Source: Squalus acanthias
Taxonomy: Eukaryota
Assembly: GCA_030390025.1 (NCBI GenBank)
Contig: CM059432.1
Span: 29,328,001 to 29,392,000 of the forward strand
DNA: 64,000 nucleotides
Reading direction: 5' to 3'
Below the pieces are notes generated by a model that was given only the letters and a program-made list of their open reading frames with translations, did not search any database and was not told where the DNA came from. This document shows, one piece after another, positions 1-28,024 of the stretch (position 1 is the first letter of the stretch; each line of letters begins with the position of its first letter). The position numbers were made by a program, and so were the translations under genes.

Positions 1-215
1 AATATCATCTCTCAATGTACAAAATATTATCACTCAATGTTCAAAATATCATCTTTAAATGGTCAAAATATCATCTCTTAATGTTCACAATATCATTTCT
101 AAATGTTGAAAATATCATCTCTCAATGTTAAAAATATCATCACTCAATATTCAAAACATCATCTCTCAAAGTTCACAACATCATCTCTCAATGTTCAAAA
201 TATCATCTCTCAATG

Positions 216-3900: not shown

Positions 3901-6900
3901 AAAATATCATCAATGTTCAAAATGCCATCTCGCAAGGTTCAAAATATCATCAATGTACAAAATATCATCTGTCAATGTTCAAAATATCATCAATGTTCAA
4001 AATATCATCATTGTTCAAAATATCATCACTCTGTTCAAAATATCATCTCTCAATGTCCAAAACATCATCTCTCAATGTTCAAAACATCATCTCTCAAAGT
4101 TCACAATATCATCTCTCAATGTTCAAAATGTGATCTCTCAATGTTCAAAATATCATCTCTCAATGTTCAAAATATCATATCTCAATGTTCACAATATCAT
4201 CACTCAATGTTCAAAATATCATCTCTCAATCTGTTAAAACTCTCATCTTTCAATCTGTTCAAAATCTCAGCACTCAATATTCAAAATAACATCACTCAAT
4301 GTTCAAAATATCATCTCTCAATGTTCAAAATATCATCAATGTGGAAAATATCATCAATATTCAAAATAACATCTCTCAATGTTCAAAATATCATCAACGT
4401 TCAAAATATCATCTCTCAATATTCAAAATATCATCTCTCAATGTTCAAAATATCCTCAATGATCAAAATATCATCGCTCAATGTTCACAATATCATCAAT
4501 GTTGAAAATATCATCTCTCAATGTTCAAAATATCATCAAAGTTCAAAATATCATCTCTCAATGTTCAAAATATCATCTCTCAATGTTCAAAATATCAACT
4601 CTCAATGTTCAAAATATCATTTCTCAATGTTCAAAATATCAACTCCTTAATGTTCACAATATCATTTCTCAATGTTGAAAATATCAACTCTCAATGTTCA
4701 AAATGTGATCTCTCAATTTTCAAAATACCATCTCTCAATGTTCAAAATATCAACTCCTTAATGTTCACAATATCATTTCTCAATGTTGAAAATATCAACT
4801 CTCAATGTTCAAAATATCATCTCTCAATGTTCAAAATATCATCTTTCTATGTTCAAAATATCACTCAATGTTCAAAATATCATCAATGTGGAAAATATCA
4901 TCAATGTTCAAAATATCATCTCTCAATGTTCAAAATATCATCAACGTTCAAAATATCATCTCTCAATGTTCAAAATGTTATCTCTCAATGTTCAAAATAT
5001 CCTCAATGATCAAAATATCATCTCTCAATGTTCACAATATAATCAATTTGCAAAATATCATCTCTCAATGTTCAAAATATCATCTCTCAAAGTTCACAAT
5101 ATCATCTCTCAATGTTCAAAATGTGATCTCTCAATGTTCAAAATATCATCTCTCAATGTTCAAAATATCATCTCTCAATGTTCAAAATATCATCTCTCAA
5201 TGTTCAAAATATCATCTCTCAATGTTCAAAATATCATCTCTCAATGTTCACAATATCATCACTCAATGTTCAAAATATCATCTCTCAATCTGTTAAAACG
5301 CTCATCTTTCAATCTGTTCAAAATCTCAGCACTCAATATTCAAAATAACATCACTCAATGTTCAAAATATCATCTCTCAATGTTCAAAATATCATCAATG
5401 TGGAAAATATCATCAATATTCAAAATATCATCTCTCAATGTTCAAAATATCATCAACGTTCAAAATATCATCTCTCAATGTTCAAAATGTTATCTCTCAA
5501 TGTTCAAAATATCCTCAATGATCAAAATATCATCTCTCAATGTTCACAATATAATCAATTTGCAAAATATCATCTCTCAATGTTCAAAATATCATCTCTC
5601 AAAGTTCACAATATCATCTCTCAATGTTCAAAATGTGATCTCTCAATGTTCAAAATATCATCTCTCAATGTTCAAAATATCATCTCTCAATGTTCAAAAT
5701 ATCATCTCTCAATGTTCAAAATATCATCTCTCAATGTTCAAAATATCATCTCTCAATGTTCACAATATCATCACTCAATGTTCAAAATATCATCTCTCAA
5801 TCTGTTAAAACGCTCATCTTTCAATCTGTTCAAAATCTCAGCACTCAATATTCAAAATAACATCACTCAATGTTCAAAATATCATCTCTCAATGTTCAAA
5901 ATATCATCAATGTGGAAAATATCATCAATATTCAAAATAACATCTCTCAATGTTCAAAATATCATCAACGTTCAAAATATCATCTCTCAATGTTCAAAAT
6001 GTCATCTCTCAATGTTCAAAATATCCTCAATGATCAAAATATCATCGCTCAATGTTCACAATATCATCAATTTTCCAAATATCATCTCTCAATGTTCAAA
6101 ATATCATCAAAGTTCAAAATATCATCTCTCAATGTTCAAAATATCATCTCTCAATGTTCACAAATCATCTCGCAATGTTTAAAATATCATCTCTCAATGT
6201 TCAAAATATCATCACTCAATGTTCACAATATCATCACTCAATGTTCAATATATCATCAATGTTCAAAATATCATCACTCAATTTTCTAAAATATAATCTT
6301 TCAATGTTCAAAATATCATCTCTCAATGTTCAAATTATCATCTCTTAATGTTCACATCATCTCTCAATGTTCAAAATATCAACTCTCAATGTTCAAAATG
6401 TCAACTCCTTAATGTTCACAATATCATTTCTCAATGTTGAAAATATCATCTCTCAACGTTCAAAATATCATCTCTCAATGTTCAAAATATCATCTTTCAA
6501 TGTTCAAAATATCACTCAATGTTCAAAATATCATCTCTCAATCTGTTAAAAATAACATTACTCAATGTGGAAAATATCATCAATGTGGAAAATATCATCA
6601 ATGTTCAAAATATCATCTCTCAATGTTCAAAATATCATCAACGTTCAAAATATCATCTCTCAATGTTCAAAATGTTATCTCTCAATGTTCAAAATATCCT
6701 CAATGATCAAAATATCATCTCTCAATGTTCACAATATCATCAATTTGCAAAATATCATCTCTCAATGTTCAAAATATCATCAAAGTTCAAAATATCATCT
6801 CTCAATGTTCAAAACATCATCTCTCAAAGTTCACAATATCATCTCTCAATGTTCAAAATGTGATCTCTCAATGTTCAAAATATCATCTCTCAATGTTCAA

Positions 6901-9900
6901 AATATCATCTCTCAATGTTCAAAATATCATCTCTCAATGTTCAAAATATCATCTCTCAATGTTCAAAATATCATCTCTCAATGTTCAAAATATCATCACT
7001 CAATGTTCAAAATATCATCTCTCAATCTGTTAAAACTCTCATCTCTCAATCTGTTCAATATCTCAGCACTCAATATTCAAAATAACATCACTCAATGTTC
7101 AAAATATCATCAATGTGGAAAATATCATCAATATTCAAAATAACATCTCTCCATGTTCAAAATATCATCAACGTTCAAAATATCGTCTCTCAATGTTCAA
7201 AATGTCATCTCTCAATGTTCAAAATATCCTCAATGATCAAAATATCATCGCTCAATGTTCACAATATCATCAATTTTCCAAATATCATCTCTCAATGTTC
7301 AAAATATCATCAAAGTTCAAAATATCATCTCTCAATGTTCAAAATATCAACTCCTTAATGTTCACAATATCATCTCTCAATGTTGAAAATATCATCTCTG
7401 AATGTTCAAAATATCATCTCTCAATGTTCAAAAAATCATCAATGTTCAAAATATCATCTCACAGTGTTCAAAATTTCATCTCTCAATGTACAAAATATTA
7501 TCACTCAATGTTCAAAATATCATCTTTAAATGGTGAAAATATCATCTCTTAATGTTCACTATCATTTCTCAATGTTGAAAATATCATCTCTCAATGTTCA
7601 AAATATCATCACTCAATGTTAAAAATATCATCTCTCAAAGTTCACAACATCATCTCTCAATGTTCAAAATATCATCTCTCAATGTTCAAAATGTGATCTC
7701 TCAATCTTCACAATATCATCTCTCAATGTTGAAAATATCATCTTTAAATGTTCAAAATGTCATCTCTTAATGTTCACAATATCATCTCTCAATGTTCCAA
7801 ATATCATATCTCAATGTTCACAATATCTTCTCTCAATGTTCAAAATATCATCAATGTTCAAAATATCATCTCTCAGTGTTCAAAATAGCATAAATGTTCA
7901 AAATAACATCAATGTTAAAAATATCATCTTTCAATGTTCACAATATCATCTCTCAATGTTCAAAATATCATCAATGTTCAAAATGCCATCTCGCAAGGTT
8001 CAAAATATCATCAATGTACAAAATATCATCTGTCAATGTTCAAAATATCATCAATGTTCAAAATATCATCATTGTTCAAAATATCATCACTCTGTTCAAA
8101 ATATCATCTCTCAATGTCCAAAACATCATCTCTCAATGTTCAAAACATCATCTCTCAAAGTTCACAATATCATCTCTCAATGTTCAAAATGTGATCTCTC
8201 AATGTTCAAAATATCATCTCTCAATGTTCAAAATATCATATCTCAATGTTCACAATATCATCACTCAATGTTCAAAATATCATCTCTCAATCTGTTAAAA
8301 CTCTCATCTTTCAATCTGTTCAAAATCTCAGCACTCAATATTCAAAATAACATCACTCAATGTTCAAAATATCATCTCTCAATGTTCAAAATATCATCAA
8401 TGTGGAAAATATCATCAATATTCAAAATAACATCTCTCAATGTTCAAAATATCATCAACGTTCAAAATATCATCTCTCAATATTCAAAATATCATCTCTC
8501 AATGTTCAAAATATCCTCAATGATCAAAATATCATCGCTCAATGTTCACAATATCATCAATGTTGAAAATATCATCTCTCAATGTTCAAAATATCATCAA
8601 AGTTCAAAATATCATCTCTCAATGTTCAAAATATCATCTCTCAATGTTCAAAATATCAACTCTCAATGTTCAAAATATCATTTCTCAATGTTCAAAATAT
8701 CAACTCCTTAATGTTCACAATATCATTTCTCAATGTTGAAAATATCAACTCTCAATGTTCAAAATGTGATCTCTCAATTTTCAAAATACCATCTCTCAAT
8801 GTTCAAAATATCAACTCCTTAATGTTCACAATATCATTTCTCAATGTTGAAAATATCAACTCTCAATGTTCAAAATATCATCTCTCAATGTTCAAAATAT
8901 CATCTTTCTATGTTCAAAATATCACTCAATGTTCAAAATATCATCAATGTGGAAAATATCATCAATGTTCAAAATATCATCTCTCAATGTTCAAAATATC
9001 ATCAACGTTCAAAATATCATCTCTCAATGTTCAAAATGTTATCTCTCAATGTTCAAAATATCCTCAATGATCAAAATATCATCTCTCAATGTTCACAATA
9101 TAATCAATTTGCAAAATATCATCTCTCAATGTTCAAAATATCATCTCTCAAAGTTCACAATATCATCTCTCAATGTTCAAAATGTGATCTCTCAATGTTC
9201 AAAATATCATCTCTCAATGTTCAAAATATCATCTCTCAATGTTCAAAATATCATCTCTCAATGTTCAAAATATCATCTCTCAATGTTCAAAATATCATCT
9301 CTCAATGTTCACAATATCATCACTCAATGTTCAAAATATCATCTCTCAATCTGTTAAAACGCTCATCTTTCAATCTGTTCAAAATCTCAGCACTCAATAT
9401 TCAAAATAACATCACTCAATGTTCAAAATATCATCTCTCAATGTTCAAAATATCATCAATGTGGAAAATATCATCAATATTCAAAATAACATCTCTCAAT
9501 GTTCAAAATATCATCAACGTTCAAAATATCATCTCTCAATGTTCAAAATGTCATCTCTCAATGTTCAAAATATCCTCAATGATCAAAATATCATCGCTCA
9601 ATGTTCACAATATCATCAATTTTCCAAATATCATCTCTCAATGTTCAAAATATCATCAAAGTTCAAAATATCATCTCTCAATGTTCAAAATATCATCTCT
9701 CAATGTTCACAAATCATCTCGCAATGTTTAAAATATCATCTCTCAATGTTCAAAATATCATCACTCAATGTTCACAATATCATCACTCAATGTTCAATAT
9801 ATCATCAATGTTCAAAATATCATCACTCAATTTTCTAAAATATAATCTTTCAATGTTCAAAATATCATCTCTCAATGTTCAAATTATCATCTCTTAATGT

Positions 9901-12900
9901 TCACATCATCTCTCAATGTTCAAAATATCAACTCTCAATGTTCAAAATGTGATCTCTCAATTTTCAAAATATCATCTCTCAATGTTCAAAATATCAACTC
10001 CTTAATGTTCACAATATCATTTCTCAATGTTGAAAATATCATCTCTCAACGTTCAAAATATCATCTCTCAATGTTCAAAATATCATCTTTCAATGTTCAA
10101 AATATCACTCAATGTTCAAAATATCATCTCTCAATCTGTTAAAAATAACATTACTCAATGTGGAAAATATCATCAATGTTCAAAATATCATCTCTCAATG
10201 TTCAAAATATCATCAACGTTCAAAATATCATCTCTCAATGTTCAAAATGTTATCTCTCAATGTTCAAAATATCCTCAATGATCAAAATATCATCTCTCAA
10301 TGTTCACAATATCATCAATTTGCAAAATATCATCTCTCAATGTTCAAAATATCATCAAAGTTCAAAATATCATCTGTCAATGTTCAAAACATCATCTCTC
10401 AAAGTTCACAATATCATCTCTCAATGTTCAAAATGTGATCTCTCAATGTTCAAAATATCATCTCTCAATGTTCAAAATATCATCTCTCAATGTTCAAAAT
10501 ATCATCTCTCAATGTTCAAAATATCATCTCTCAATGTTCAAAATATCATCTCTCAATGTTCAAAATATCATCACTCAATGTTCAAAATATCATCTCTCAA
10601 TCTGTTAAAACTCTCATCTCTCAATCTGTTCAATATTTCAGCACTCAATATTCAAAATAACATCACTCAATGTTCAAAATATCATCAATGTGGAAAATAT
10701 CATCAATATTCAAAATAACATCTCTCCATGTTCAAAATATCATCAACGTTCAAAATATCGTCTCTCAATGTTCAAAATGTCATCTCTCAATGTTCAAAAT
10801 ATCCTCAATGATCAAAATATCATCGCTCAATGTTCACAATATCATCAATTTTCCAAATATCATCTCTCAATGTTCAAAATATCATCAAAGTTCAAAATAT
10901 CATCTCTCAATGTTCAAAATATCAACTCTCAAGGTTCACAAATCATCTCGCAATGTTTAAAATATCATCTTTCAATGTTCAAAATATCATCACTCAATGT
11001 TCACAATATCATCACTCAATGTTCAATATATCATCAATGTTCAAAATATCATCACTCAATGTTCTAAAATATCATCTTTCAATGTTCAAAATATCATCTC
11101 TCAATGTTCAAATTATCATCTCTTAATGTTCACATCATCTCTCAATGTTCAAAATATCATCTCTCAATGTTCAAAATATCAACTCTCAATGTTCAAAATG
11201 TGATCTCTCAATTTTCAAAATATCATCTCTCAATGTTCAAAATATTAACTCCTTAATGTTCACAATATCATTTCTCAATGTTGAAAATATCATCTCTCAA
11301 CGTTCAAAATATCATCTCTCAATGTTCAAAATATCATCTTTCAATGTTCAAAATATCATCTCTCAATGTTCAAAATATCATCTCTCAATGTTCAAAATAT
11401 CAACTCTCAATGTTCAAAATGTGATCTCTCAATTTTCAAAATATCATCTCTCAATGTTCAAAATATCAACTCCTTAATGTTCACAATATCATTTCTCAAT
11501 GTTGAAAATATCATCTCTCAACGTTCAAAATATCATCTCTCAATGTTCAAAATATCATCTTTCAATGTTCAAAATATCACTCAATGTTCAAAATATCATC
11601 TCTCAATCTGTTAAAAATAACATTACTCAATGTTCAAAATATCATCAATGTGGAAAATATCATCAATGTTCAAAATATCATCTCTCAATGTTCAAAATAT
11701 CATCAACGTTCAAAATATCATCTCTCAATGTTCAAAATGTTATCTCTCAATGTTCAAAATATCCTCAATGATCAAAATATCATCTCTCAATGTTCACAAT
11801 ATCACTCAATTTGCAAAATATCATCTCTCAATGTTCAAAATATCATCTCTCAATGTTCAAAATATCATCTCTCAATGTTCAAAATATCATCAATTTGCAA
11901 AATATCATCTCTCAATGTTCAAAATATCATCAAAGTTCAAAATATCATCTCTCAATGTTCAAAATATCATCTCTCAATGTTCACAATATCATCAATGTTC
12001 AAAATATCGCTCAATGATCAAAATATCAGCTCTCAACGTTCAAAATATCATCAATGTTCAAAATATCATCTCTCAGTGTTCAAAATATCATCTCTCAATG
12101 TACAAAATATCATCTCTCAATGTTCACAATATCATCAATGTTCAAAATAACGCTCAATGATCAAAATATCAGCTCTCAATGTTCAAAATATCATCAATGT
12201 TCAAAATATCATCTCTCAGTGTTCAAAATATCATCTCTCAATCTGTTAAAAATAACATTACTCAATGTTCAAAATATCATCAATGTGGAAAATATCATCA
12301 ATGTTCAAAATATCATCTCTCAATGTTCAAAATATCATCAACGTTCAAAATATCATCTCTCAATGTTCAAAATGTTATCTCTCAATGTTCAAAATATCCT
12401 CAATGATCAAAATATCATCTCTCAATGTTCACAATATCATCAATTTGCAAAATATCATCTCTCAATGTTCAAAATATCATCTCTCAATGTTCAAAATATC
12501 ATCTCTCAATGTTCAAAATATCATCAATTTGCAAAATATCATCTCTCAATGTTCAAAATATCATCAAAGTTCAAAATATCATCTCTCAATGTTCAAAATA
12601 TCATCTCTTAATGTTCACAATATCATCAATGTTCAAAATATCGCTCAATGATCAAAATATCAGCTCTCAATGTTCAAAATATCATCAATGTTCAAAATAT
12701 CATCTCTCAGTGTTCAAAATATCATCTCTCAATGTACAAAATATTATCACTCAATGTTCAAAATATCATCTTTAAATGGTCAAAATATCATCTCTTAATG
12801 TTCACAATATCATTTCTAAATGTTGAAAATATCATCTCTCAATGTTAAAAATATCATCACTCAATATTCAAAACATCATCTCTCAAAGTTCACAACATCA

Positions 12901-12932
12901 TCTCTCAATGTTTAAAATATCATCTCTCAATG

Positions 12933-13621
12933 GGTATTGGTGAGACCGCACCTGGAGTACTGCATACAGTTTTGGTGTCCATACTTAAGAAAAGACATAC
13001 TTGCTCTCGAGGCAGTACAAAGAAGGTTCACTCGGTTAATTCCGGGGATGAGGGAGTGGACATACGAGGAGAGATTGAGTAGATTGGGACTCTACTCATT
13101 GGAGTTCAGAAGAATGAGAGGCGATCTTATTGAAACATATAAGATTGTGAAGGGGCTTGATCGGGTGGGCGTGGTGAGGATGTTCCCAATGATGGGTGAA
13201 ACTAGAACTAGGGGACATAATCTTAGAATAAGGGGCTCCTCTTTCAAAACTGAGATGAGGAGAAACTTTTTCACTCAGAGGGTAGTGGGTCTGTGGAATT
13301 TGCTACCCCAGGAAGCTGTGGAAGCTACTTCATTAAATAAATTTAAAACAGAAATAGACCGTTTCCTAGAAGTAAAGGGAATCAGGGGTTACGGGGAGCG
13401 GGCTGGAAATTGGACATGAGTTTGAGTTCGGATCGGTCAAGGCCCTGTGGGTGGTGGAGCGGGCCCAGGGACTGAGTGGCCTGGTCCTTCTCCTGCTTCT
13501 TGTGTTCTTTAGAGTTGAGGTTGGACCAGATCAGCCATGATCTCATTGAATGGCGGAGCTGGCTCGAGGGGCCGATTGGTCTACTCCTGCTCCTATTTCT
13601 TATGTTCTTATGATCTTATGT
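12933..13621 (+). mobile_element. CR1 LINE 3' fragment, copy 2
   Basis: Same 689 bp, truncation point and flanks as copy 1 (offset 12717). One visible substitution at 13560. Confidence 0.93.
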
Positions 13622-15452
13622 AATGTTCAAAATATGATCTCTCAATGTTCAAAATAACATCTCTCAATGTTGAAAATATCGACTTTAAATGGTCAAAATA
13701 TCAACCCTTAATGTTCACAATATCATCTCTCAATGTTGAAAATATCATCTCTCAATGTTCAAAATATCACATCTCAATGTTCACAATATCATCTCTCAAT
13801 GTTCAAAATATCATCTCTCAATTTTGAAAATATCATCTTTAAACGGTCAAAATATCATCTCTTAATGTTCACAATATCATCTCTCAATGTTGAAAATATC
13901 ATCTCTCAATGTTCAAAATATCATCTCTCAATGTTCAAAATATCATAAATGTTCAAAATATCATCAATGTTAAAAATATCATCTTTAAAATTTCACAATA
14001 TCATCTCTCAATGTTCAAAATATCATCAATCTTCAAAATGCCATCTCGCAAGGTTCAAAATATCATCAATGTACAAAATATCATCTGTCAATGTTCAAAA
14101 TATCATCAATGATCAAAATATCATCATTGTTCAAAATATCATCACTCTGTTCAAAATATCATCTCTCAATGTTCAAAACATCATCTCTCAAAGTTCACAA
14201 TATCATCTCTCAATGTTCAAAATGTGATCTCTCTGTTCAAAATGTCATCTCTCAATGTTCAAAATATCATCTCTCAATGTTCAAAATGTGATCTCTCAAT
14301 GTTCAAAATATCATATCTCAATGTTCACAATATCATCACTCAATGTTCAAAATATCATCACTCAATCTTCAAAATATCATCTCTCAATCTGTTAAAACTC
14401 TCATCTTTCAATCTGTTCAAAATCTCAGAACTCAATATTCAAAATAACATCACTCAATGTTCAAAATATCATCTCTCAATGTTCAAAATATCATCAATGA
14501 GGAAAATATCATCAATGTTCAAAATAACATCTCTCAATGTTCAAAATATCACCAATGTTCAAAATATCATCTATCAATGTTCAAAATGTCATCTCTCAAT
14601 GTTCAAAATATCCTCAATGAGCAAATTATCATCGCTCAATGTTCACAATATCATCAATTTTCCAAATATCATATCTCAATGTTCAAAATATCATCAAAGT
14701 TCAAAATATCATCTCTCCATGTTCAAAATATCATCACTCAATGTTCACAATATCATCTCTCAATGTTCAAAATATCATCTCTTAATGTTCACATCATCAC
14801 TCAATGTACAAAATATCATCTCTCAATGTTCAAAATATCATCTCTCAATGTTCAAAATATCAACTCTCAATGTTCAATATGTGATCTCTCAATTTTCAAA
14901 ATATCATCTCTCAATGTTCAAAATATCATCTGTCAATGTTCACAATATCATTTCTCAATGTTCAAAATATCATCAATGTTCAAAATATCATCACTCAATG
15001 TTCAAAATATCATTTCTCAATGTTCAAAATATCAGCAATGTTAAAAATATCATCACTCTGTTCAAAATATCATCTCTCAATGTTCAAAATATCATCTCTC
15101 AATGTTCAAAATATCATCTCTCAATGTTGAAAACATCATTTCTCAATGTTCAAAACATCATCTCTCAAAGTTCAAAATATCATCTCTCAATGTACAAAAT
15201 ATCATCTCTCAATGTTAAAAATATCATCAATGTTCCAAATATCATCTCTCAATGTACAAAATATTATCACTCAATGTTCAAAATATCATCTTTAAATGGT
15301 CAAAATATCATCTCTTAATGTTCACAATATCATTTCTAAATGTTGAAAATATCATCTCTCAATGTTAAAAATATCATCACTCAATATTCAAAACATCATC
15401 TCTCAAAGTTCACAACATCATCTCTCAATGTTCAAAATATCATCTCTCAATG

Positions 15453-16141
15453 GGTATTGGTGAGACCGCACCTGGAGTACTGCATACAGTTTTGGTGTCC
15501 ATACTTAAGAAAAGACATACTTGCTCTCGAGGCAGTACAAAGAAGGTTCACTCGGTTAATTCCGGGGATGAGGGAGTGGACATACGAGGAGAGATTGAGT
15601 AGATTGGGACTCTACTCATTGGAGTTCAGAAGAATGAGAGGCGATCTTATTGAAACATATAAGATTGTGAAGGGGCTTGATCGGGTGGGCGTGGTGAGGA
15701 TGTTCCCAATGATGGGTGAAACTAGAACTAGGGGACATAATCTTAGAATAAGGGGCTCCTCTTTCAAAACTGAGATGAGGAGAAACTTTTTCACTCAGAG
15801 GGTAGTGGGTCTGTGGAATTTGCTACCCCAGGAAGCTGTGGAAGCTACTTCATTAAATAAATTTAAAACAGAAATAGACCGTTTCCTAGAAGTAAAGGGA
15901 ATCAGGGGTTACGGGGAGCGGGCTGGAAATTGGACATGAGTTTGAGTTCGGATCGGTCAAGGCCCTGTGGGTGGTGGAGCGGGCCCAGGGACTGAGTGGC
16001 CTGGTCCTTCTCCTGCTTCTTGTGTTCTTTAGAGTTGAGGTTGGACCAGATCAGCCATGATCTCATTGAATGGCGGAGCAGGCTCGAGGGGCCGATTGGT
16101 CTACTCCTGCTCCTATTTCTTATGTTCTTATGATCTTATGT
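15453..16141 (+). mobile_element. CR1 LINE 3' fragment, copy 3
   Basis: Apparently identical to copy 1 at offset 15237, including the flanking satellite variants. Confidence 0.93.
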
Positions 16142-19100
16142 AATGTTCAAAATATGATCTCTCAATGTTCAAAATAACATCTCTCAATGTTCAAAATATT
16201 GACTTTAAATGGTCAAAATATCAACCCTTAATGTTCACAATATCATCTCTCAATGTTGAAAATATCATCTCTCAATGTTCAAAATATCACATCTCAATGT
16301 TCACAATATCATCTCTCAATGTTCAAAATATCATCTCTCAATTTTGAAAATATCATCTTTAAACGGTCAAAATATCATCTCTTAATGTTCACAATATCAT
16401 CTCTCAATGTTGAAAATATCATCTCTCAATGTTCAAAATATAATCTCTCAATGTTCAAAATATCATAAATGTTCAAAATATCATCAATGTTAAAAATATC
16501 ATCTTTAAAATTTCACAATATCATCTCTCAATGTTCAAAATATCATCAATCTTCAAAATGCCATCTCGCAAGGTTCAAAATATCATCAATGTACAAAATA
16601 TCATCTGTCAATGTTCAAAATATCATCAATGATCAAAATATCATCATTGTTCAAAATATCATCACTCTGTTCAAAATATCATCTCTCAATGTTCAAAACA
16701 TCATCTCTCAAAGTTCACAATATCATCTCTCAATGTTCAAAATGTGATCTCTCTGTTCAAAATGTCATCTCTCAATGTTCAAAATATCATCTCTCAATGT
16801 TCAAAATATCATCACTCAATCTTCAAAATATCATCTCTCAATCTGTTAAAACTCTCATCTTTCAATCTGTTCAAAATCTCAGAACTCAATATTCAAAATA
16901 ACATCACTCAATGTTCAAAATATCATCTCTCAATGTTCAAAATATCATCAATGAGGAAAATATCATCAATGTTCAAAATAACATCTCTCAATGTTCAAAA
17001 TATCACCAATGTTCAAAATATCATCTATCAATGTTCAAAATGTCATCTCTCAATGTTCAAAATATCCTCAATGAGCAAATTATCATCGCTCAATGTTCAC
17101 AATATCATCAATTTTCCAAATATCATATCTCAATGTTCAAAATATCATCAAAGTTCAAAATATCATCTCTCCATGTTCAAAATATCATCACTCAATGTTC
17201 ACAATATCATCTCTCAATGTTCAAAATATCATCTCTTAATGTTCACATCATCACTCAATGTACAAAATATCATCTCTCAATGTTCAAAATATCATCTCTC
17301 AATGTTCAAAATATCAACTCTCAATGTTCAATATGTGATCTCTCAATTTTCAAAATATCATCTCTCAATGTTCAAAATATCATCTGTCAATGTTCACAAT
17401 ATCATTTCTCAATGTTCAAAATATCATCAATGTTCAAAATATCATCACTCAATGTTCAAAATATCATTTCTCAATGTTCAAAATATCAGCAATGTTAAAA
17501 ATATCATCACTCTGTTCAAAATATCATCTCTCAATGTTCAAAATATCATCTCTCAATGTTCAAAATATCATCTCTCAATGTTGAAAACATCATCTCTCAA
17601 TGTTCAAAACATCATCTCTCAAAGTTCAAAATATCATCTCTCAATGTACAAAATATCATCTCTCAATGTTAAAAATATCATCAATGTTCCAAATATCATC
17701 TCTCAATGTTCAAAATATCATCTCTTAATGTTCACAATATAACTTCACAATATTGATAATATCATCTCTCAATGTTCAAAGTATCATCTCTCAATGTTCA
17801 AAATATCATCTCTCAATGTTCAAAATATCATCAATGTTCTAAATATCATCTCGCAATGTTCAAAATATCATCCATGTTCAAAATATCATCTCGCAATGTT
17901 TGAAATATCATATCTCAATGTTCACAATATCTTCTCTCAATGTTCAAAATATCATCAAAGTTCAAAATGCCATCTCCCAATGTTGAAAATATCAATGTTC
18001 AAAATGCCATCTTGCAATGTTCCAAATATCATCAATGTTCAAAATATTATCTCTCAATGTTCAAAATATCATCAATGTTCAAAATATCATATCTCAATGT
18101 TCAAAATATCAGCAATGTTCAAAATATCATCTCTCAATGTTCAAAATGTGATCTCTCAATTTTCAAAATATCATCACTCAATGTTCAAAATATCATCTCT
18201 CAATTTTCAAAATATCATCTCTCAATGTTCAAAATATTATCACTCAATGTTCAAAATATCATCTTTAAATGGTCAAAATATCATCTCTTAATGTACACAA
18301 CATCATTTCTCAATGTTGAAAATATCATCTCTCAATGTTCAAAATATTATCTCTCCATGTTCAAAATATCTTCTCTCAATGTTCACAACATCATCTCTCA
18401 ATGTTCAAAATGTGAGCTCGCAATTTTCAAAATATCATCTCTCAATGTTGAAAATATCATCTCTCAATGTTCAAAATGCCATCTCGCAATGTTGAAAATA
18501 TCAATGTTCAAAATGCCATCTCGCAATGTTCAAAATATCATCAATGTTCAAAATATCATCTCTCAATGTTCAAAATATCACCTCTCATCGTTCAAAATAT
18601 CCTCAATGTTGTAAATATCATCAATGTTCAAAATATCCTCAAAGTTCAAAATATCATCTCTCAATGTTCAAAATATTATCACTCAAGGTTCAAAATATCA
18701 TCTCTCAATGTTCACAGTATCATCTCTCAATGTTCAAAATATCATCTGTAGAATTCGCAAAATTATCGCGATTTTATAAAAATAAGAAGGAGACATAAAG
18801 TTTCGTATAAACAGCTTTATTTCAGCAGAATGCTGTCAGTTTTCAAAACGGACACAAACAGCCTGTAAAATGTCCGCCACGCCTCGTGGCAGAAAGTTCT
18901 AGACTTTCAGTAGGCAGACAAGATGGCGTTTCAATAAACATTTCAGCAAGATCGGACAGGACTCAGCACATTTGAGATAATGACAAGACATGATGGGTTT
19001 GCATTTTAAACATAAATACTGGAATCGGTCTTCCAGGTGCAAACAAGGGCTATTGTACTGAGCGATCAAGGACCCATCCAAAGACATTAATATGCAAAAT

Positions 19101-19319
19101 CCCCACGGCTCTACGATGAGAGAGCCGTTCGCGGGTACTCACAGCAAGCATTTGGAAGCTCCAAAACCCCTCCAGGGAGACTACTAGCCGGTTCCACAAT
19201 GGGAGAAATATTAACGGGTACTCAGACAGTTACAAGTGTCACCGAAACCCATTAAAGACTGAGATCACCCCATACAAGAAGTTTTGAGCGCCAAAACCTG
19301 ACAAAAGATAGACATTAAG

Positions 19320-19390
19320 ATTGGGCGGGAAAATAGAAATTACAGCACTATAACTGTAAAGTACAACCGTCCATCTCTCTCTTGCTACTC
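19320..19390 (+). promoter_or_regulatory. Candidate LTR core promoter
   Basis: Inverted CCAAT (ATTGG 19320-19324), GC box (GGGCGG 19323-19328), TATA-like TATAAC at 19349 and a CT-rich tract ~25 bp later. A second TATAA lies at ~19661, so the assignment is ambiguous. Confidence 0.3.
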
Positions 19391-19570
19391 TGACTCGCAG
19401 GAAGGCTGCTGAACTCTTATTCTTTTGCCTGACGACTCTGGACTCTGATCCGCTAGGATCAACCTCGTGGCTTGCCGTGAAGATCTGTGGAGAACTGGGC
19501 TGTGAGGCCTGGAGGCAGGCGCACCATCCCGAGGAGTCGGTAAATGGTGTTGGAACCGAAGGCCCGAGAG

Positions 19571-19605
19571 GAGATGAGATGAGATGAAATGAGATGAGAT
19601 GAGAT
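19571..19605. repeat. (GAGAT)n microsatellite inside the LTR
   Basis: Seven units (one GAAAT) in the 5' LTR versus five in the 3' LTR at ~27218-27242. Confidence 0.9.
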
Positions 19606-20392
19606 GAGAAGAAGACTACACATGTCGCCGCGGTTAGTAAGCCCCGACCGCGCCTAAAAATATAAGGACAATTTTCGAATTCTATCGGCTACTCCACAAC
19701 TGGCCCGAGAAGACTATTCTTCGAGTTCTACCGACAACTGGTGTAGGACACAGGAAGACTCTTTTTTTTGAGTAGTATCAGAACTCCGAGGGCAACACAG
19801 ATCTTCATGACAGCAGACGGTCCAGCCTGCTAGCCGGAGCAGAAGTGAGTAAACAAGTGGGGTACAGAGACCCCTGATCAACACGTGGATAGTCAGGTGC
19901 TGCGGTAAAAACATCCGAGCAGAGTTTCGGAATTCTCCGAGTTATCACGAGTGGTGAGCATGAGTCTCGATCCTACAAATCTAGATTAGGACAGGTATTG
20001 ATAGGGGAGGGTTTTATGTTTTAAGGATAATTATAATGTGTGTCCCCTTTTACGATGTGTCGTGCGCTCCTCGTTTCCCTAAACCTAGTTGCATAAATGT
20101 ATGTAAGTTTGTACTGTCATTAATCTGTGCTTATGACATGTATTTCGTAATCTTGAATAATATGCAATAAAGATTTTCCATTTCGCACTATTCAACCGGG
20201 TCTATCTGAGTTTTCTCTGCATTATTGCTCTCGCACCTAAGTCCAGTGTCAGAACCGTAAGGGCGAGTGGGTCGAACCACTCACAGGTGTCTAGTGTTAC
20301 CAGGCTGGCTGGAGACCAGAACAGGCAACAAGGCCTAACCCCGCACTAACACTCAGGCTAAGCACAGAGCCACACGTCACCCCTTACAGATA

Positions 20393-22218
20393 ATGGCGAC
20401 CACAAAGGGACACTGGCAGCGAGAAAATAATGTGTTAGACCCTGGTATGAATGGGCGAAATGTTATGGAAGAGAGAATAGCCGATTATGTTTTTGGAAAA
20501 GTGAATTTGACTAAGAGATGGATAAGTGACCTGCTGGTGGATAAGCGTCCACTAGAGGCAGCCGTGAGGTGGACAGGCAGCAAGGAACATAAAAAAACTG
20601 TAGAGAAAGCGGTCTGGCTGATGTGCTATAAAAGACAAGTCCAGCTTTCGGACCAGGTCATTACAGCGCAGGCAGCTCAGATCAAGGGTTTAGAGGTGGA
20701 AATGGACGAGAAGGTCGCAGGGGGGGCAGCAGCTCATCGCGTCTTTAAATGCGTTGCATCAAGAATGCCAGTTAGTGCCCAACCACTATGAGGCGAAAAT
20801 AGATTACCTCGAGTGCCAGGTCACTGAGGCAAAGTTAAATGAGGGCAGAATAAGGGAACGATGTGCCCGCCTAGCTGCTCAAATAAAAGCCCAGGAAGAG
20901 AGCTTAACGGGGGTTAGGGCGGCATATAAGATGGCCCTCGAGGATAAACATGAGGGGGCCGATCACAGCGTCTGCCAAAGAGAGATAGGGAACCTTAAAG
21001 AGGCCCTGAATAAAGCGCACGGCATGGTGTGCCTTATCAGCCCGTCAGCACACCAGCCGCCGGTGGGTGGGGAATTTCAAAAATCCCTACCGAACAAAGC
21101 AGAGGAGGTATTTGCCACTGTGCCCTCCGCGCCACCCAGCTATTCGGCAACCTGGATAAGGGAGGAAGTGGTAGAAGTAGAGGAAGAGGTCCCCGAGGTA
21201 GTACAGCCCCCTGAAGTAGTAGCGAAGCCGGGACCGTTGTGTCCGGTCACGGGTATCAAAAGGGGCCCGGCCGGAGAAAATGGGGAAGCGGGGAATCTCC
21301 TCAACCAACTTGTGTTGCCTCACAGCTCACACCAGCTGAGGGCTATGATCAGTCACGTACGGAAGCTGGTCCGAGTCAGACGACCCTTCCGTACATTTCA
21401 GGGAGGTAGAGCAGACCGCAGCCATTAACGGCTGCGACGATGGGGAAAAGGCTAGAATGCTGCTGTTCTCCTTAGACAGCTCGATCCTCCAGTGTCTCTC
21501 AGACGCGAGTAAAAGGGGTGATAAGACCTATGAGGAGTTAAGAGATGAGGTCCTAGAAGTGTTGGGGGCGGACGACGAAGGTCCGTTTGTGAGATTGGGA
21601 CAGACTATGCAGATGGAGGGAGAACCCCCGAAGGTTTTCGCCGACAGGCTGTGGCCTGTCTATCAGCGTAGCTGCCCAGGTGCGCCAGCGCGCGACGATC
21701 TGGACGGTGTCGGTTTAGCTCATTGGCTCAGATGTATAGTAGCCAACAGCTTGCCAGCCGTGAGGGAGCAGGCCAAAGCGTGGTTTGATCCCACTAACCC
21801 CGCCAAAACAGAGGAGTCGGTCCTAAATCGACTCACGGTCGGGTACCGTAATACCAGGAGTACGGGAGCACGTCCCCTTAAGGGAAAGGTGCATGAGGCG
21901 CGGCCCACAGCCCCGGCTCAAAAGGAGTGGCATCAGGAGGGAAATCGCGTCCCACAGGCCAGTAATGCTTGTTTCGGATGCGGAAAGACAGGGCACTGGC
22001 GCAAGAACTGCAGGAATCCTTGGAAGGAGTCCAGGGATAAAAATCCCGCAGTCCAAGCCCAGGCGCCTGTCTCTGATAGGGGAGCTGGTGTGCCTATCCA
22101 TCCCGATGCGATCGAATCAATGTTGGGAGCCATGCGCACCCTCATGATTTCGCAAGGAAGGGTGGCAGTCGCTACCGGCCCCGCAGATGCCGCAGCCCCG
22201 TCCAACAGTACCCAATGA
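20393..22218 (+). pseudogene. gag: Gag-like polyprotein (~580-607 aa), broken by two single-base insertions
   Basis: ORFs 20393-20791, 20754-21428 and 21457-22218 join if one G is removed in the G7 run (20720-20726) and one at ~21369. Features: N-terminal coiled coil, PSAPPSY (21123-21143), capsid-like DPSVHFREVE...EKARMLL and MHR-like QMEGEPPKVFADRL, and CFGCGKTGHWRKNC (21970-22011). The true start may be ATG 20447 or 20465 because 20393 overlaps the PBS. Confidence 0.88.
20394..20411 (+). promoter_or_regulatory. Primer-binding site, tRNA-Arg type
   Basis: TGGCGACCACAAAGGGAC lies 5 nt after the LTR. It matches the complement of the vertebrate tRNA-Arg(TCG) 3' end (TGGCGACCACGAAGGGAC, recalled from memory) at 17/18 positions. 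Confidence 0.8.
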
Positions 22219-22222
22219 CTAG
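22213..22222 (+). promoter_or_regulatory. Putative stop-codon readthrough signal CAA-TGA-CTAG
   Basis: The Gag stop TGA (22216-22218) is followed by CTAG, an established leaky-stop context, and by 231 in-frame sense codons. Confidence 0.75.
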
Positions 22223-23297
22223 AGCCCGCGCAGCCTGCCTACCTGTGTCCCTTTAAAAGACATGCACAGGAGGGGGTCTCCTGTAAGGAGGCCAGGTTAA
22301 AAGAGCAGGCCTTACGGGAGGAGAACGCCCGCTTAATGGGGAAAATAGATGGGCTAGAAGCGCAGCTTAGAGACATAAAAGCAGCCTACAGGGTAGCCAG
22401 GAGCAGGGAGTATGAGGATTTAAAACAGAATAGAAATCTGCAGCCTCCAGCAGGTGAGATTTCACAGAATGCACAAGCAGGGGCGGTGGCCTGTGTTAGG
22501 GGAGGGGCCAAACCTGCGAGTGGGGACTCGCAGCCCCGGGTAGGCCCACAGGGCACACAGGCAGGCAAAGCAGCTTGCATCAGGGGAGAGGACATCCTAG
22601 CAAAATGTAGGATCCTTTATTTGGGTTGGGAGTCAGATGAGGAAGAGTTCGAGGAGCTCGACCAAGATAGTGACACAAGCGAAGAGGAGCTGGAATCGGA
22701 GGACGAAAGGGTCGCCCCCGATTCAGGTAAAGGGGAGACAGGGGCTGCAGATAGAGATCCACACAGGGTGGAAGCCGAAGCTGCAGGTCCCGAACGCAGG
22801 GGGGCGGAGCTAGGCGAGGCGGAGCCAGCCGCTGTGGTGGGACCACAGGGCGTGGCGATGGAAGCCTCAGAGCCCGAGCCGCCCGCCTTGAACGTCTTGC
22901 CTCGAATGAGGTAGGGACTGCAAGTGAAGGGCCGCCTACTGGGCCAAGTAGGGCGGTGCCACAAGCTGCAGATCCCGAGTTCAGGGAGGCGGAGTCAGGG
23001 GAGGCGGAGCCAGCGACTGTGGTGGGACCACAGGTCGCCACGGTGGAAGTCTCGGAACCCGGTCCGTCAGTCCTGGAGTTCCTGCCCCCGGTAGTTCCCC
23101 GTAGGTCAAGTCGGAAACCCCAGCCCAGAAAGATGTGGGTAAGTCCCCCGTATGTCCCTAGGCATAGGTCCAGGGCTAAGGCAGCCCAGGGAGAGCCCAG
23201 TCACAGCGCAGCAGCAACAGGCTGCGGCAGACCAAAGGGAGGGGTCAATGCCCTCCCACCATTGGGAGAAGCCTGCGGCAGCAACCGCAGAATTTGA
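22219..23297 (+). CDS. Gag-frame extension in the pol position (coiled coil, acidic/Pro-rich repeats, basic tail); one frameshift at ~22900
   Basis: Open in the gag frame from 22219 to 22914. A -1 shift near 22900 continues into the frame of ORF 22956-23297, which carries the second copy of the same peptide repeat. No protease, RT, RNase H or integrase motif seen. Confidence 0.6.
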
Positions 23298-23587
23298 GTA
23301 GGCCGCCCTGGGAACGGGCGGCACTGTACAGTTATAAGATAAGTGATAAGTTTATAAGTTTATAAGTTCAAGTTTATAGTTTTAAATCAGGTTAAGTTTG
23401 TAGTTTAATTTTAACAGAAAATGGTAAAATGATGGGAGTTTTAGAGATAGGAATAGTTAAAGTCTATCCAGCGCACATGTCTTCTTACGTGAGGCGAGGT
23501 CAGGGGACCCGCTCACCCTTCACAAAAGCCAGAGACTCTTGGGAGGCTGGCTACCTCATTCTATCTGATCACAGGAACCAAGGAAGG

Positions 23588-25939
23588 ATGGAACGGATTC
23601 TGGTAGTGCTCGCGGCAATCGGATGTGGACTGGCCTATCGAGGCCGCACCAAGGATGTCGTGGTGTTTGGATGCTCCGGGGACACGGCCCCCATCACGGT
23701 GGATGGGACCGGAAGGCGAGAGGCTGAGGAGACCGCCACCTACTTCCACAAGGGAAGGTGGCCAGGATGGCTGGGAACGAATTCAACTGAATATTCCAGT
23801 ACATCGGGATTTGCCTATAAAGAGACTTCTTTAATGTGCCCCAAAGTGAGGATCATCGCACCCAGAGTCAGCGTCACCGTCGGCAAATGGATTTGTTTGA
23901 CTTGTAATGGGAATGTCCCATTGAGCCGATGGTGGTGGCTACGAAAGCTGAGCAAAAACATGAGGAACTCTTCGGTCGAGTGGGAGCGACTGGGTAATAA
24001 TACCCATCGGACAATTACGGGGACTTACGGACAATTGAGAGTCTGTTGGGACAAATGGTGGGAACCGGATGAGGGAATTTATGTATGTATGTGGGGGTCA
24101 AAGCACGTTTGCCCCAAAGGCATCTCCATATTTTTCATCAATCAGTGGCAGGATAATGGGAAAGGGATGAGGTGGGATGCAAGCACCAGGGGGTGCGGGG
24201 CTCCATACTCTCTGATCCCGGTAAATGCCACTGAACTCATTACGCGCCCACGCAAGGCCCCACCCACAATTCCGGTGGTTCTAGCTAAGGAAGAAGGGTG
24301 CCCAAAAAGCAGTAAGGGACCCGGGAATGGTTTGGTACTGGTCCCTACAGACCAGCTATTATTTCAGGGGGTACATTATGCGGTGGCCTCAGTGATTTTA
24401 AACCTCACCGAGGTGCGGTTGCCGGAGTGGTGCCCCAAAGAGACGGAACGGTTATATCAGGTCCTGTTGACCAAGATGTTTAGGCAATTTTATGAGTTCG
24501 ATTTCGCGGAAATTGATAAAACAAGTTTGTACACCGCACCACATGAAGTTTTGGGTCAGGTGGGGAGACAAAGAAGGGGTGTTGTGAACGACATGTTCAC
24601 TGCTTTCAATACAGGTACATCTGTGGTCAACGCTCTAGACAGCGTGGAGCTGCAGACCCAGATTAATGGTTTGAAAACTTAATTAAAGGATATTCTTACA
24701 GACGAAAATAAGGTGGTTGGGTCTGGGTTACATGAGGACCAGGCCATGACTCTCCATTTAAAAGAAATCATAGCTGAACTAGAGAAACATGCGCGTACGG
24801 TAAATGCCCTGATCAGGGAAGATCGGAATGCGTCCGATCAGGCTGTGCAGAATGAGGTGTGCGTGCTTTATGGGGCGTGGTTACTGGGCGAGGGCCGCAG
24901 TAATTTGGAGGATTTAAAACAAGGTTTGGTCCCGTCCTGGATAAGTAACAAACACCTGCAGGCGCTCCACCCTTTTCAGAACGCATTAAGTCCGTGCCAG
25001 CTCAGGCTAGCTTCAGAAGCATACCCAGTCCCCGTGGACTGCGGACGATCAAACCACACCATTATGGGTGTAGTTTTACGTATGCCGGTTTTGGGCGACA
25101 CAGCAAAGCCCGCCCCGGTATATCGGGTAGAGAACATTGGTGTCATTCAGGGGGGAGCCCACATTCGCTATGCAGCGGTTCCACCTTACGTCATCCGCTG
25201 GGAGCAAACGATGACAGGTACAGATCTCTCTGGTTGTCGTAGCTGGGGAGCACACATAATCCTGTGTCCCCAGCACTTGAATGCCTTTTTAACACCACAG
25301 TGCGGGTTCAGAACGGCTGGCGCCAAGCCCATGAATTGCACCATGGAGGCAATGGCACAAGATCATGTGCCTCTGCAGGTAGCATACATCGGGGGTGGAA
25401 CATATTGTGTTACCACTGCAGCGCAACACTACCAGCATGGAAACCGGAGCCGGTGTCCGGTGAGTGACAGCAGTTTTTGTTTTAAACCCAGGGCTGAAGT
25501 TCAAGTGGCACAGCAGCGAATTGTCCCGATCCCTGAACCATCCACTGTTCATCTTACAGTAAAAGAGAACTTCACCGACTTGCAGCGATTCGTCGCGCAT
25601 TTCGGATACCTCATTCCCCCTCTCCCTGAACACCTCACCAAGCTTTTGAAAGCCGTCGCGGTATCGCAAAAACATTTTTACACCCTAGAACAAAAGACTG
25701 TCGAGATAGGGACAGAAATTCTAGACATAGTAATTCCACCGTGGTGGGATCTGTTCACCAACATTGAAGTGCCTTCCTGGATTAGAATAGCCTCCCACAT
25801 TTTAGTTGTATGCCAAGTGTTTATTGTGATATACTTATTGGTCGTGCATTGTAAGAGAGGCAAACGCCTCACCAAGAACGAAAACACGGGAGAGTGGCGA
25901 GAGCGTTACGTGCGCGTGCACGAAGAAAGCACCGCGTAA
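23588..25939 (+). pseudogene. env: Env-like class I fusion glycoprotein (783 codons) with one in-frame stop (TAA 24680-24682)
   Basis: ATG in AGGATGG context 14 nt after an acceptor-like pyrimidine tract/CAG (23574). Signal peptide MERILVVLAAIGCGLA, furin site RQRR (24566-24577), fusion-peptide-like GVVNDMFTAFNTG, heptad region, Cys-rich core, about ten N-glycosylation sequons, Trp-rich membrane-proximal region, TM helix (~25787-25851) and a YVRV tail. ORFs 23429-24682 and 24713-25939 share a frame. Confidence 0.88.
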
Positions 25940-26381: not shown

Positions 26382-26393
26382 AACAGGAGGGAC
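26382..26393 (+). promoter_or_regulatory. Polypurine tract
   Basis: AACAGGAGGGAC immediately before the TG of the 3' LTR. Confidence 0.75.
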
Positions 26394-28024
26394 TGTAGAA
26401 TTCGCAAAATTATCGCGATTTTATAAAAATAAGAAGGAGACATAAAGTTTCGTATAAACAGCTTTATTTCAGCAGAATGCTGTCAGGTTTCAAAACGGAC
26501 ACAAACAGCCTGTAAAATGGCCGCCACGCCTCGTGGCAGAAAGTTCTAGACTTTCAGTAGGCAGACAAGATGGCGTTTCAATAAACATTTCAGCAAGATC
26601 GGACAGGACTCAGCACATTTGAGATAATGACAAGACATGATGGGTTTGCATTTTAAACATAAATACTGGAATCGGCCTTCCAGGTGCAAACAAGGGCTAT
26701 TGTACTGAGCGATCAAGGACCCATCCAAAGACATTAATATGCAAAATCCCCACGGCTCTACGATGAGAGAGCCATTCGCAGGTACTCACAGCAAGCATTT
26801 GGAAGCTCCAAAACCCCTCCAGGGAGACTACTAGCCGGTTCCACAATGGGAGAAATATTAACGGGTACTCAGACAGTTACAAGTGTCACCGAAACCCATT
26901 AAAGACTGAGATCACCCCATACAAGAAGTTTTGAGCGCCAAAACCTGACAAAAGATAGACATTAAGATTGGGCGGGAAAATAGGAATTACAGCACTATAA
27001 CTGTAAAGTACAACCGTCCATCTCTCTCTTGCTGGTCTGACTTGCTGGAAGGCTGCTGAACTCTTATTCTTTTGCCTGACGACTCTGGACTCTGATCCGC
27101 TAGGATCAACCTCGTGGCTTGCCGCGAAGATCTGTGGAGAACTGGGCTGTGAGGCCTGGAGGCGGGCGCACCATCCCGAGGAGTCGGTAAACGGTGTTGG
27201 AACCGAAGGCCCGAGAGGAGATGAGATGAGATGAGATGAGATGAGAAGAAGACTACACGTGTCGCCGCAGTTAGTAAGCCCCGACCGCGCCTAAAAATAT
27301 AAGGACCATTTTCGAATTCTATCGGCTACTCCACAACTGGCCCGAGAAGACTATTCTTCGAGTTCTACCGACAACTGGTGTAGGACACAGGAAGACTCTT
27401 TTTTTGAGTAGTATCAGAACTCCGAGGGCAACACAGATCTTCATGACAGCAGACGGTCCAGCCTGCTAGCCGGAGCAGAAGCGAGTAAACAAGTGGGGTA
27501 CAGAGACCCCTGATCAACACGTGGATAGTCAGGTGCTGCGGTAAAAACATCCGAGCAGAGTTTCGGAATTCTCCGAGTTATCACGAGTGGTGAGCATGAG
27601 TCTCGATCCTACAAATCTAGATTAGGACAGGTATTGATAGGGGAGGGTTTTATGTTTTAAGGATAATTATAATGTGTGCCCCCTTTTACGATGTGTCGTG
27701 CGCTCCTCGTTTCCCTAAACCTAGTTGCATAAATGTATGTAAGTTTGTACTGTCATTAATCTGTGCTTATGACATGTATTTCGTAATCTTGAATAATATG
27801 CAATAAAGATTTTCCATTTCGCACTATTCAACTGGGTCTATCTGAGTTTTCTCTGCATTATTGCTCTCGCACCTAAGTCCAGTGTCAGAACCGTAAGGGC
27901 GAGTGGGTCGAACCACTCACAGGTGTCTAGTGTTACCAGGCTGGCTGGAGACCAGAACAGGCAACAAGGCCTAACCCCGCACTAACACTCAGGCTAAGCA
28001 CAGAGCCACACGTCACCCCTTACA
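26394..28024 (+). repeat. 3' LTR (1631 bp)
   Basis: Differs from the 5' LTR by roughly 20 substitutions (counted by eye), two fewer GAGAT units and one fewer T. AATAAA at 27802-27807. Confidence 0.96.

Follow-up and report, generated by a model that had tools for sequence, protein, structure and literature searches.

The question raised by this locus is whether a retroviral envelope gene (env) can carry an ordinary immunoglobulin (Ig) domain as the outermost part of its product and, if so, what such a domain would do there. The locus lies in a stretch of 64,000 nucleotides of Squalus acanthias DNA (GenBank assembly GCA_030390025.1, contig CM059432.1, positions 29,328,001 to 29,392,000 of the forward strand), the whole of which is termed the window and is numbered from its first letter. 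The window holds an endogenous retrovirus (ERV) with long terminal repeats (LTRs), which is the host element of the env described here. An earlier reading, made from the letters of the window without database searches and referred to below as the sequence-only reading, had proposed an Ig-like domain at the N-terminus of this envelope protein. The analysis reported here suggests, with a probability of about 0.62 for the reading as a whole, that this domain is a membrane-distal receptor-binding module on an F-type env, that the module is old and modular, and that the window contains it in a pol-deleted copy of a young ERV family.

The Ig-type domain of the envelope protein

The env frame extends, stop to stop, from 23396 to 25939 on the plus strand and is interrupted by a single in-frame TAA at 24680-24682; candidate ATG starts are present at 23429, 23477 and 23588, and env residues are counted from codon 23591. 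The Ig-superfamily V/I-type domain occupies positions 23840-24145 (plus strand; residues 84-185). Its B-strand Cys (23903-23905) ends the sequence G-K-W-I-C-L-T-C, aligns to the B-strand Cys of domain D3 of VEGFR1 and of JAML, and is found in 12 of 15 aligned segments. A WWW cluster (23930-23938) follows 9-11 residues past this first Cys, its middle residue being the conserved C-strand Trp, and the F-strand motif D-E-G-I-Y-V-C (24068-24088) closes with a Cys (codon 24086-24088) that aligned to the F-strand Cys of solved Ig domains, 61 residues on from that of the B strand. The residue pattern of the superfamily, namely a B-strand Cys, a Trp approximately 10-14 residues later and an F-strand Cys 55-75 residues on within a D-x-G-x-Y-x-C context, is therefore present. 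The Trp column was invariant in an alignment of nine rows, nearly invariant in one of 15, and lay opposite the Ig Trp in profile alignments. The residues quoted in the sequence-only reading all fall in the env frame and were accurate to the base, and its placement of the domain downstream of a hydrophobic leader and upstream of the conserved pre-furin portion of the surface subunit was likewise correct.

The lineage to which the window element belongs has four additional Cys in or around the domain, at residues 83, 102, 152 and 174, from whose positions we infer only that a B-E strand pair and a pre-A/G pair would be allowed. All six Cys, the WWW cluster and the G, Y and C of the F-strand motif were unchanged in 30 of 30 genomic copies read.

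Searches with the N-terminal half of the window env alone (phmmer against the PDB) returned no match at E ≤ 10. A profile was built from nine positionally equivalent segments, of which the distant ones, as in the 15-row alignment, were picked by position and by eye. This profile matched 1766 PDB chains at E ≤ 10, and all 60 of the matches listed belonged to the Ig superfamily (E 5.3e-7 to 2.8e-3). The best were VEGFR1 (5.3e-7) and JAML (2.2e-6), both multi-domain chains whose scores add up contributions from more than one domain; the cleanest value, 2e-5, is that of single-domain CRTAM and covers profile positions 13-108. The Cys, Trp and Cys of the family stood opposite the canonical Ig residues in these alignments. 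Since the distant segments had been chosen by position and by eye, a control profile comprising only the window sequence and four close relatives was run. The V domain of CRTAM occupied the top two places (E 0.0037 and 0.008) with the whole domain covered, and eight of the 12 chains matched at E ≤ 10 were of the Ig superfamily while four were not.

Individual members were also compared with Pfam, as the sequence-only reading had envisaged. The model Ig_3 (PF13927) matched seven of the nine segments at E ≤ 10, with a best value of 3.9e-4; the value for the window sequence taken alone is considered below. The bamboo-shark relative P0017 bears the UniRef name ‘Ig-like domain-containing protein’, an independent annotation, and the protein language-model (ESM) features of the window segment were nearest to the ig, V-set and I-set clusters (0.92-0.94).

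An AlphaFold model of 126 residues, made with 15 aligned rows, comprised seven strands, with a predicted local distance difference test score (pLDDT) of 60 and a predicted template modelling score of 0.53. Both canonical Cys fell within predicted strands (model positions 31-37 and 91-99). A model of the whole N-terminal half (363 residues, eight rows) had a pLDDT of 32 and was unusable. The best PDB rows returned by Foldseek for the domain were, by entry title, mostly antibody, T-cell-receptor or shark VNAR complexes (E 0.015-0.05, TMq 0.35-0.48, TMt 0.25-0.51). An exhaustive structural aligner placed TREM-1 first, with Z 6.6 and a root mean square deviation of 3.0 over 92 residues, followed by NKp44, TREM2, the Fc-mu receptor and catshark CD8-alpha at Z 5.6-5.8. 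A total of 48 chains scored Z ≥ 5 and none Z ≥ 8; values below 8 can reflect a common arrangement, and those within 1 of each other are ties. The modelling yielded seven strands and V-type Ig neighbours, but at a pLDDT of 60 and with best scores of E 0.015 and Z 6.6 it fell short of a firm fold assignment. No fold score is strong alone; sequence profiles, language-model features and fold neighbours agree, and the domain is very probably an Ig-superfamily domain of V/I-set type, in support of what the sequence-only reading had claimed.

The domain is preceded by a putative signal peptide or signal-anchor, a hydrophobic segment of 13 residues read from the translation (23597-23635, plus strand), and by an N-terminal subdomain of 67 residues with two Cys (23639-23839, plus strand). 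The subdomain aligns in close relatives only (skate, sawshark and further records) and was modelled by AlphaFold with a confidence below 50. It is followed, after the Ig-type domain, by a partly Pro-rich linker (24146-24298, plus strand) that carries one N-glycosylation sequon and does not align with distant relatives. Ahead of the hydrophobic segment, a stretch of 38 residues with an ATG start (23477-23590) was kept in 15 of 16 genomic copies, while the ATG at 23429 was not kept in most. In the frog relatives P0071 and P0073 approximately 40 residues, a hydrophobic segment and a basic K-R-S site lie ahead of the Ig head. By analogy with the retained leader peptide of foamy viruses, the 38-residue stretch may be a leader of this kind.

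Distribution and exchange of the head

The close relatives of the window env, from skate and sawshark, are 54-75% identical to it over the N-terminal half. Distant full-length relatives were found in bamboo shark, catshark, three frogs and further records, and in these the alignment with the query starts no earlier than residue 206-236. They have their own Ig-type segment directly before a conserved C-P...G-L motif. The heads of the shark, skate and frog envs occupy the same position as the window head and share 10-28% identity with it. In the alignment of the heads, a G and the Trp show little or no variation and both canonical Cys are present in 12 of 15 rows, one frog group lacking both. 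Global pairwise identity was dropped as a criterion for distant heads, as an unrelated Cys-rich module also gave 17-35%.

This Cys-rich module was encountered in two relatives, P0016 and P0025 (houndshark and sawshark), in which a segment of similar length replaces the head and does not match the Ig head profile. The question put by the sequence-only reading, whether related envs swap or lack the domain, can accordingly be answered in favour of exchange in these two. No Cys-rich module was found in the genome of the window with the P0016 N-terminus as query.

The head of the bamboo-shark env matched 38 places in the same genome, with a best identity of 78% and many matches containing stops. 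Three of the 38 were inspected; all were proviral, with an Ig-headed env directly after the integrase C-terminus. Loci L032 (3033-3965), L033 (2904-3764, minus strand) and L034 (2687-3493, minus strand) are more degraded proviruses with a different Ig-headed env, 35-78% identical to the bamboo-shark head.

Parts of the env family also occur inside public gene models (P0004, P0012 and P0039). The last ~230 residues of a sawshark ‘zinc finger protein ZFP2-like’ model are an env head, a 673-residue gene-model protein begins with env residues 172-424, and a horn-shark ‘fbxo15 isoform’ model contains part of the family. These are probably annotation chimeras, though exonisation may have occurred. 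A further match, P0047 (5014 residues; env residues 21-87 in 16 stretches, E 7.5e-7), is a bacterial G/A/S/D-rich repeat protein and was rejected as a repeat artefact.

The fusion core

The conserved part of the surface subunit preceding the furin site (24299-24565, plus strand), which the sequence-only reading had labelled F2-like, starts with C-P-x(8)-G-L, a motif present in 10 of 10 full-length relatives examined. It ends at an R-Q-R-R furin-type site (24566-24577), which is followed by a candidate fusion peptide, the two together spanning 24566-24640 on the plus strand as read from the translation. A basic R/K-x-K/R-R site is located at the equivalent place in the relatives read. The rest of the transmembrane subunit (24641-25936, plus strand) consists of a long helical region, a Cys-rich region, a second helical region (25622-25729), a membrane anchor (25778-25846) and a short tail. 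Five Cys columns of this subunit were invariant or nearly so in 15 relatives. The succession of cleavage site, fusion peptide, long helical region, Cys-rich region, second helix and anchor, as read in translation, would be the order of an F-type protein.

Language-model neighbours of the transmembrane half were clusters of Baculo_F (0.94-0.96; 20 of 30 matches, 208 shared features) and a cluster of Fusion_gly (0.90). Neither Fusion_gly (PF00523) nor Baculo_F (PF12259) was matched in Pfam at E ≤ 10 by the window env or its 15 relatives, and a 15-row profile of the whole env gave only four weak, irrelevant matches in the PDB. Nor was any other envelope family of Pfam recognised in the window env or in these relatives. 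The F2-like label keeps the indirect backing of the language-model neighbours of the transmembrane half, but not that of a Pfam or PDB sequence match.

The C-x6-CC motif is found, together with an immunosuppressive domain, in the transmembrane subunit of gamma-type Env. There is no adjacent Cys pair, and so no such motif, in the transmembrane subunit encoded in the window, nor was there a TLV_coat or GP41-type match in Pfam. The B strand of the Ig-type domain contains, in C-L-T-C, a C-x-x-C that resembles the one known from surface subunits of the gamma type; its first Cys is confined to the window lineage, and it has no C-x6-CC partner in the transmembrane subunit.

Copies in the genome and selection

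With the N-terminal half as query, at least 112 places in the genome were found at 94-100% identity, these having been scored out of 7947 first-look candidates, and 97 of the 112 had no stop inside the match. Sixteen copies, nine of them without a stop, could be aligned without gaps over 782 codons. Over the 120 pairs the mean ratio of nonsynonymous to synonymous divergence (dN/dS) of env was 0.12 at a dS of 0.10, and the ratio was the same in the transmembrane half, which played no part in the choice of copies. The env of this young and very abundant family has, on comparison of the copies, evolved under purifying selection. As dN/dS is low, also in the transmembrane half, we infer that most of the divergence arose under selection on env, as expected for spread by infection.

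The Ig segment had a dN/dS of 0.27, against 0.08-0.13 elsewhere in env. Its dS was about three times below that of the rest (0.037 vs 0.08-0.14), which could reflect sampling or an overlapping RNA signal.

Function of the head and alternative explanations

In the reading favoured here, the Ig domain would be the part of a retroviral surface subunit that lies farthest from the membrane, and the rest of the env would have the layout of an F-type class I fusion protein. Because an F-type fusion core by itself lacks a part that binds receptors, the head is most likely a receptor-binding module, which, judged by position and analogy, would start entry. Fernandez et al. (2024; PMC11468914) describe F-like fusion cores as scaffolds that have acquired modules for receptor binding at various positions. 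As the shared, outermost and exchangeable module of the present family, the head would by analogy with such scaffolds be the best receptor-binding candidate. In five of five close pairs, the 150 residues before the core were 5-15 points less identical than the core (81/86, 69/79, 61/76, 80/91 and 75/87%), which is in line with a receptor-binding role.

Several observations weigh against this reading. The receptor role itself is drawn from position and analogy. A simple arms race is not seen among the genome copies, in which the dN of the head is no higher than elsewhere: the Ig segment, at 0.0099 compared with 0.0125 overall, is no more variable in amino acids, and its higher dN/dS stems from the low dS of 0.037, which is unexplained. 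The copies compared had moreover been taken as the best protein matches to the N-terminal half, which lowers dN in that half but leaves the transmembrane half unaffected. Sequence searches of Pfam and the PDB do not back the F-type reading of the core, even when a profile of 15 sequences is used. For the domain, the window sequence alone gave no significant Pfam match (Ig_3, E 0.17; 12.8 bits where the gathering cut-off is 30, which is an operational threshold of that one model and not a property of the fold). The distant segments of the nine-row profile were hand-picked and the five-row control was much weaker than that profile. The structural model is of medium confidence only, and no fold match reached a Foldseek E of 0.001 or a Z of 8.

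The head may instead be real but act in immune evasion or mimicry, or shield the prefusion core, in which case the linker or the 67-residue subdomain, for instance, would bind the receptor. Immune modulation is common among viral Ig-like proteins, and UL6, a membrane protein of cytomegalovirus, was the best viral fold neighbour of the head (E 4.7e-3). Among solved folds, those of innate immune receptors come nearest (TREM-1, NKp44, TREM2 and the CD300 type), and the window lineage does possess the additional N-terminal subdomain. That subdomain is, however, confined to close relatives, and outside the core no module but the Ig head is shared. An env without a separate attachment protein needs a binding module, a role for which the conserved head is the candidate. 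No particular meaning attaches to the immune-receptor neighbours, as Z values within 1 are ties. An immune or shielding role in place of receptor binding is thus considered unlikely.

Alternatively, the element or its immediate ancestors could have taken up a host Ig-superfamily exon within this host lineage. A viral protein with canonical Ig-superfamily signatures is usually assumed to have obtained them from a host, the head has changed more rapidly than the core, and the N-terminal module differs between some lineages. Such a recent event is at odds with the occurrence of heads at the same position, and at only 10-28% identity, in the envs of sharks, skate and frogs, and with their presence in other, older env lineages of the same genome, where three of three inspected matches to a related head were proviral and not host genes. 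Nor does any solved Ig domain stand out as a near relative, the best single-domain match being the E of 2e-5 already given. Recent capture is accordingly held to be improbable, and the suggestion of the sequence-only reading that a host domain had been captured, when read as a capture by this element, was not upheld. Because the same head occurs in diverged envs of sharks, skate and frogs and in an older env lineage of the same genome, any capture would have to be old, and the Ig head appears from these comparisons to be an old, exchangeable module of the env family. That the module derives ultimately from an Ig-superfamily gene of a host is plausible; no donor gene was identified in a genome search in which the best candidates only were scored, these being proviral copies.

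That a β-rich stretch abundant in Cys and Trp mimics the Ig motif by chance would accord with the Pfam E of 0.17 for the window alone, the medium model confidence, the sub-threshold fold scores and the four non-Ig chains among the 12 matched by the five-row profile, but is very improbable given that profiles, language-model features and fold neighbours all point to the same superfamily and that the Cys-Trp-Cys triad is retained across lineages at about 25% identity.

The provirus and its surroundings

The element that carries the Ig-headed env is inserted in an AT-rich satellite, and G+C content rises from approximately 27% in the satellite to 50-56% inside the element. The 5’ LTR has a minimum extent of 18746-20062 (plus strand), as judged from the repeats 18746-19045, 19576-19768 and 19763-20062, which recur 7636-7647 nucleotides downstream at 97-99% identity. 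The 3’ LTR, the direct repeat of the former at the same identity, has a minimum extent of 26393-27698 (plus strand). Colinearity of the window with a full-length sibling copy in the same genome (L031) begins at 18747.

The sibling has a single gag frame of 451 codons, a stop, and a pol of 1496 codons in the same frame that encodes protease (PR), reverse transcriptase (RT), a tether (degraded RNase H), RNase H and integrase. Its pol was about equally near in the PDB to Ty3 (7.6e-71), to the RT of xenotropic murine leukaemia virus-related virus and murine leukaemia virus (MLV) (1.4e-68) and to foamy-virus PR-RT (2.4e-63). In the window copy gag (20339-22218, plus strand) is divided over three frames, with open reading frames (ORFs) at 20339-20791, 20694-21428 and 21349-22218, and contains a CCHC zinc knuckle (Pfam zf-CCHC, E 0.0014). 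The pol remnant (22219-23297, plus strand) comprises approximately the first 30 nucleotides, 253 nucleotides with no match in the sibling (22251-22502) and the C-terminal end of integrase (22503-23297). Alignment of the window with L031 by blastn gave only the stretches 18747-22250 and 22503-23764. Because this alignment skips ~3.66 kb of pol, in the place of which lie the 253 unmatched bases, the window element is a provirus with a deletion in pol, frameshifts in gag and a single stop in env. Contigs from four runs cover the element, from which no conclusion on transcription is drawn. The integrase remnant contains a direct repeat of 137 nucleotides (22765-22901 and 22950-23086, 75% identity).

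The gag-env junction of the window was used as a query, a choice that itself favours the deleted form, and 40 places were scored: nine were colinear, 17 were colinear in two abutting pieces and 14 matched only downstream of the deletion. The pol-less gag-env form is therefore multi-copy: 26 of the 40 places share the junction, which in 17 shows a slight difference in length. Such numbers suggest that the pol-less form was mobilised in trans by full-length copies.

The satellite extends over window positions 1-18700 and 28000-52000. It is long, with a G+C content of 26-29%, a GC skew of about -0.55 and copies at a spacing of 22 nucleotides, and its plus strand shows endless open frames of the type M-F-K-I-S-S-L-N-V-Q-N-I-I-S. 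Between 52000 and 64000 several RT-like ORFs resemble fragments of long interspersed nuclear elements, and a transposase-like ORF is located at 60167-61009 on the minus strand, both assignments having been made by eye only.

Relation to known systems and significance

By architecture, the nearest described group is that of the lokiretroviruses (Wang and Han, 2020; PMC7947760). In the accessible part of that article these have, like the present family, gag, pol with a tether and RNase H, and env, and an Env with signal peptide, basic cleavage site, fusion peptide, coiled-coil region and membrane anchor that is not of the ordinary retroviral type; both they and the present env family occur in amphibians and a lobe-finned fish. 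They differ in that a Fusion_gly match in Pfam (2.2e-7) is given for a salmonid env, whereas none of 15 members matched at E ≤ 10 here. The same part of the article lists five vertebrate classes, cartilaginous fish not being among them, and neither the word immunoglobulin nor the word Ig-like appears there. The lokiretroviral combination of a tether and a second RNase H is present in the L031 pol (RVT_1, RT_RNaseH_2/RT_RNaseH, RNase_H and rve), a feature common to ordinary retroviruses.

Foamy-virus Env and the ‘class Ib’ F-like proteins (PMC11468914) share with the present env the concept of an F-like core with its own receptor-binding module, the site of which varies: foamy Env has it as an insertion, the coronavirus spike as the N-terminal S1. 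No sequence match of env to foamy Env was obtained in Pfam searches with the window and 15 relatives. The Baculovirus F and errantivirus (gypsy) Env proteins of PF12259 are the nearest language-model neighbours of the transmembrane half, and in both cases a furin site is directly followed by the fusion peptide. They differ in having insect rather than vertebrate hosts and in giving no Pfam match at E ≤ 10. We know of no Ig head in that family.

Viral glycoproteins with host-like Ig domains include herpes simplex gD, with its V-like core, the RL11 family of cytomegalovirus and the poxvirus haemagglutinin. These (UL6 among the RL11-type proteins) resemble the present env in bearing an Ig-type domain on a viral surface protein that binds host molecules, but they belong to large DNA viruses, where they are separate proteins for attachment or immune modulation, and are not the N-terminal module of a retroviral fusion protein. 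In gamma-type Env, such as that of MLV or feline leukaemia virus, the receptor-binding domain is an N-terminal β-sandwich head of the surface subunit; to our knowledge it lacks the Cys-Trp-Cys and D-x-G-x-Y-x-C signature.

No published description of an Ig-headed retroviral env was found in a search of the literature on env diversity in sharks, anamniotes and invertebrates. The searched passages of the lokiretrovirus follow-up article (PMC9040795), an anamniote env preprint, an invertebrate env-element preprint and a 2026 structural review make no mention of an Ig domain. The remark of the sequence-only reading that the architecture was unfamiliar among retroelement envs agrees with this, no paper describing it having come to light.

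A wider evolutionary reconstruction can be offered as a tentative one that is, taken whole, more doubtful than probable. The family would constitute a distinct branch of F-type retroviral fusion proteins in which a host V domain, captured long ago as a receptor-binding head, descended through cartilaginous fishes, a lobe-finned fish and amphibians, a Cys-rich module having replaced it in some lineages; the window lineage would have been infectious in a cartilaginous fish very recently and would also have mobilised pol-less gag-env derivatives.

F-type fusion proteins normally depend on a separate attachment protein or an added binding module, and the gain and exchange of such modules is an open question in the evolution of viral entry. 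A retroviral env seems here to use an ordinary Ig-superfamily domain at its N-terminus as the solution. The head is small and is unbroken in this copy, and the existence of natural variants in several vertebrate classes, with an alternative module in some relatives, makes the question testable. The family is in addition unusual in being very young and abundant with an env under purifying selection, in a host group without reported lokiretrovirus-like elements.

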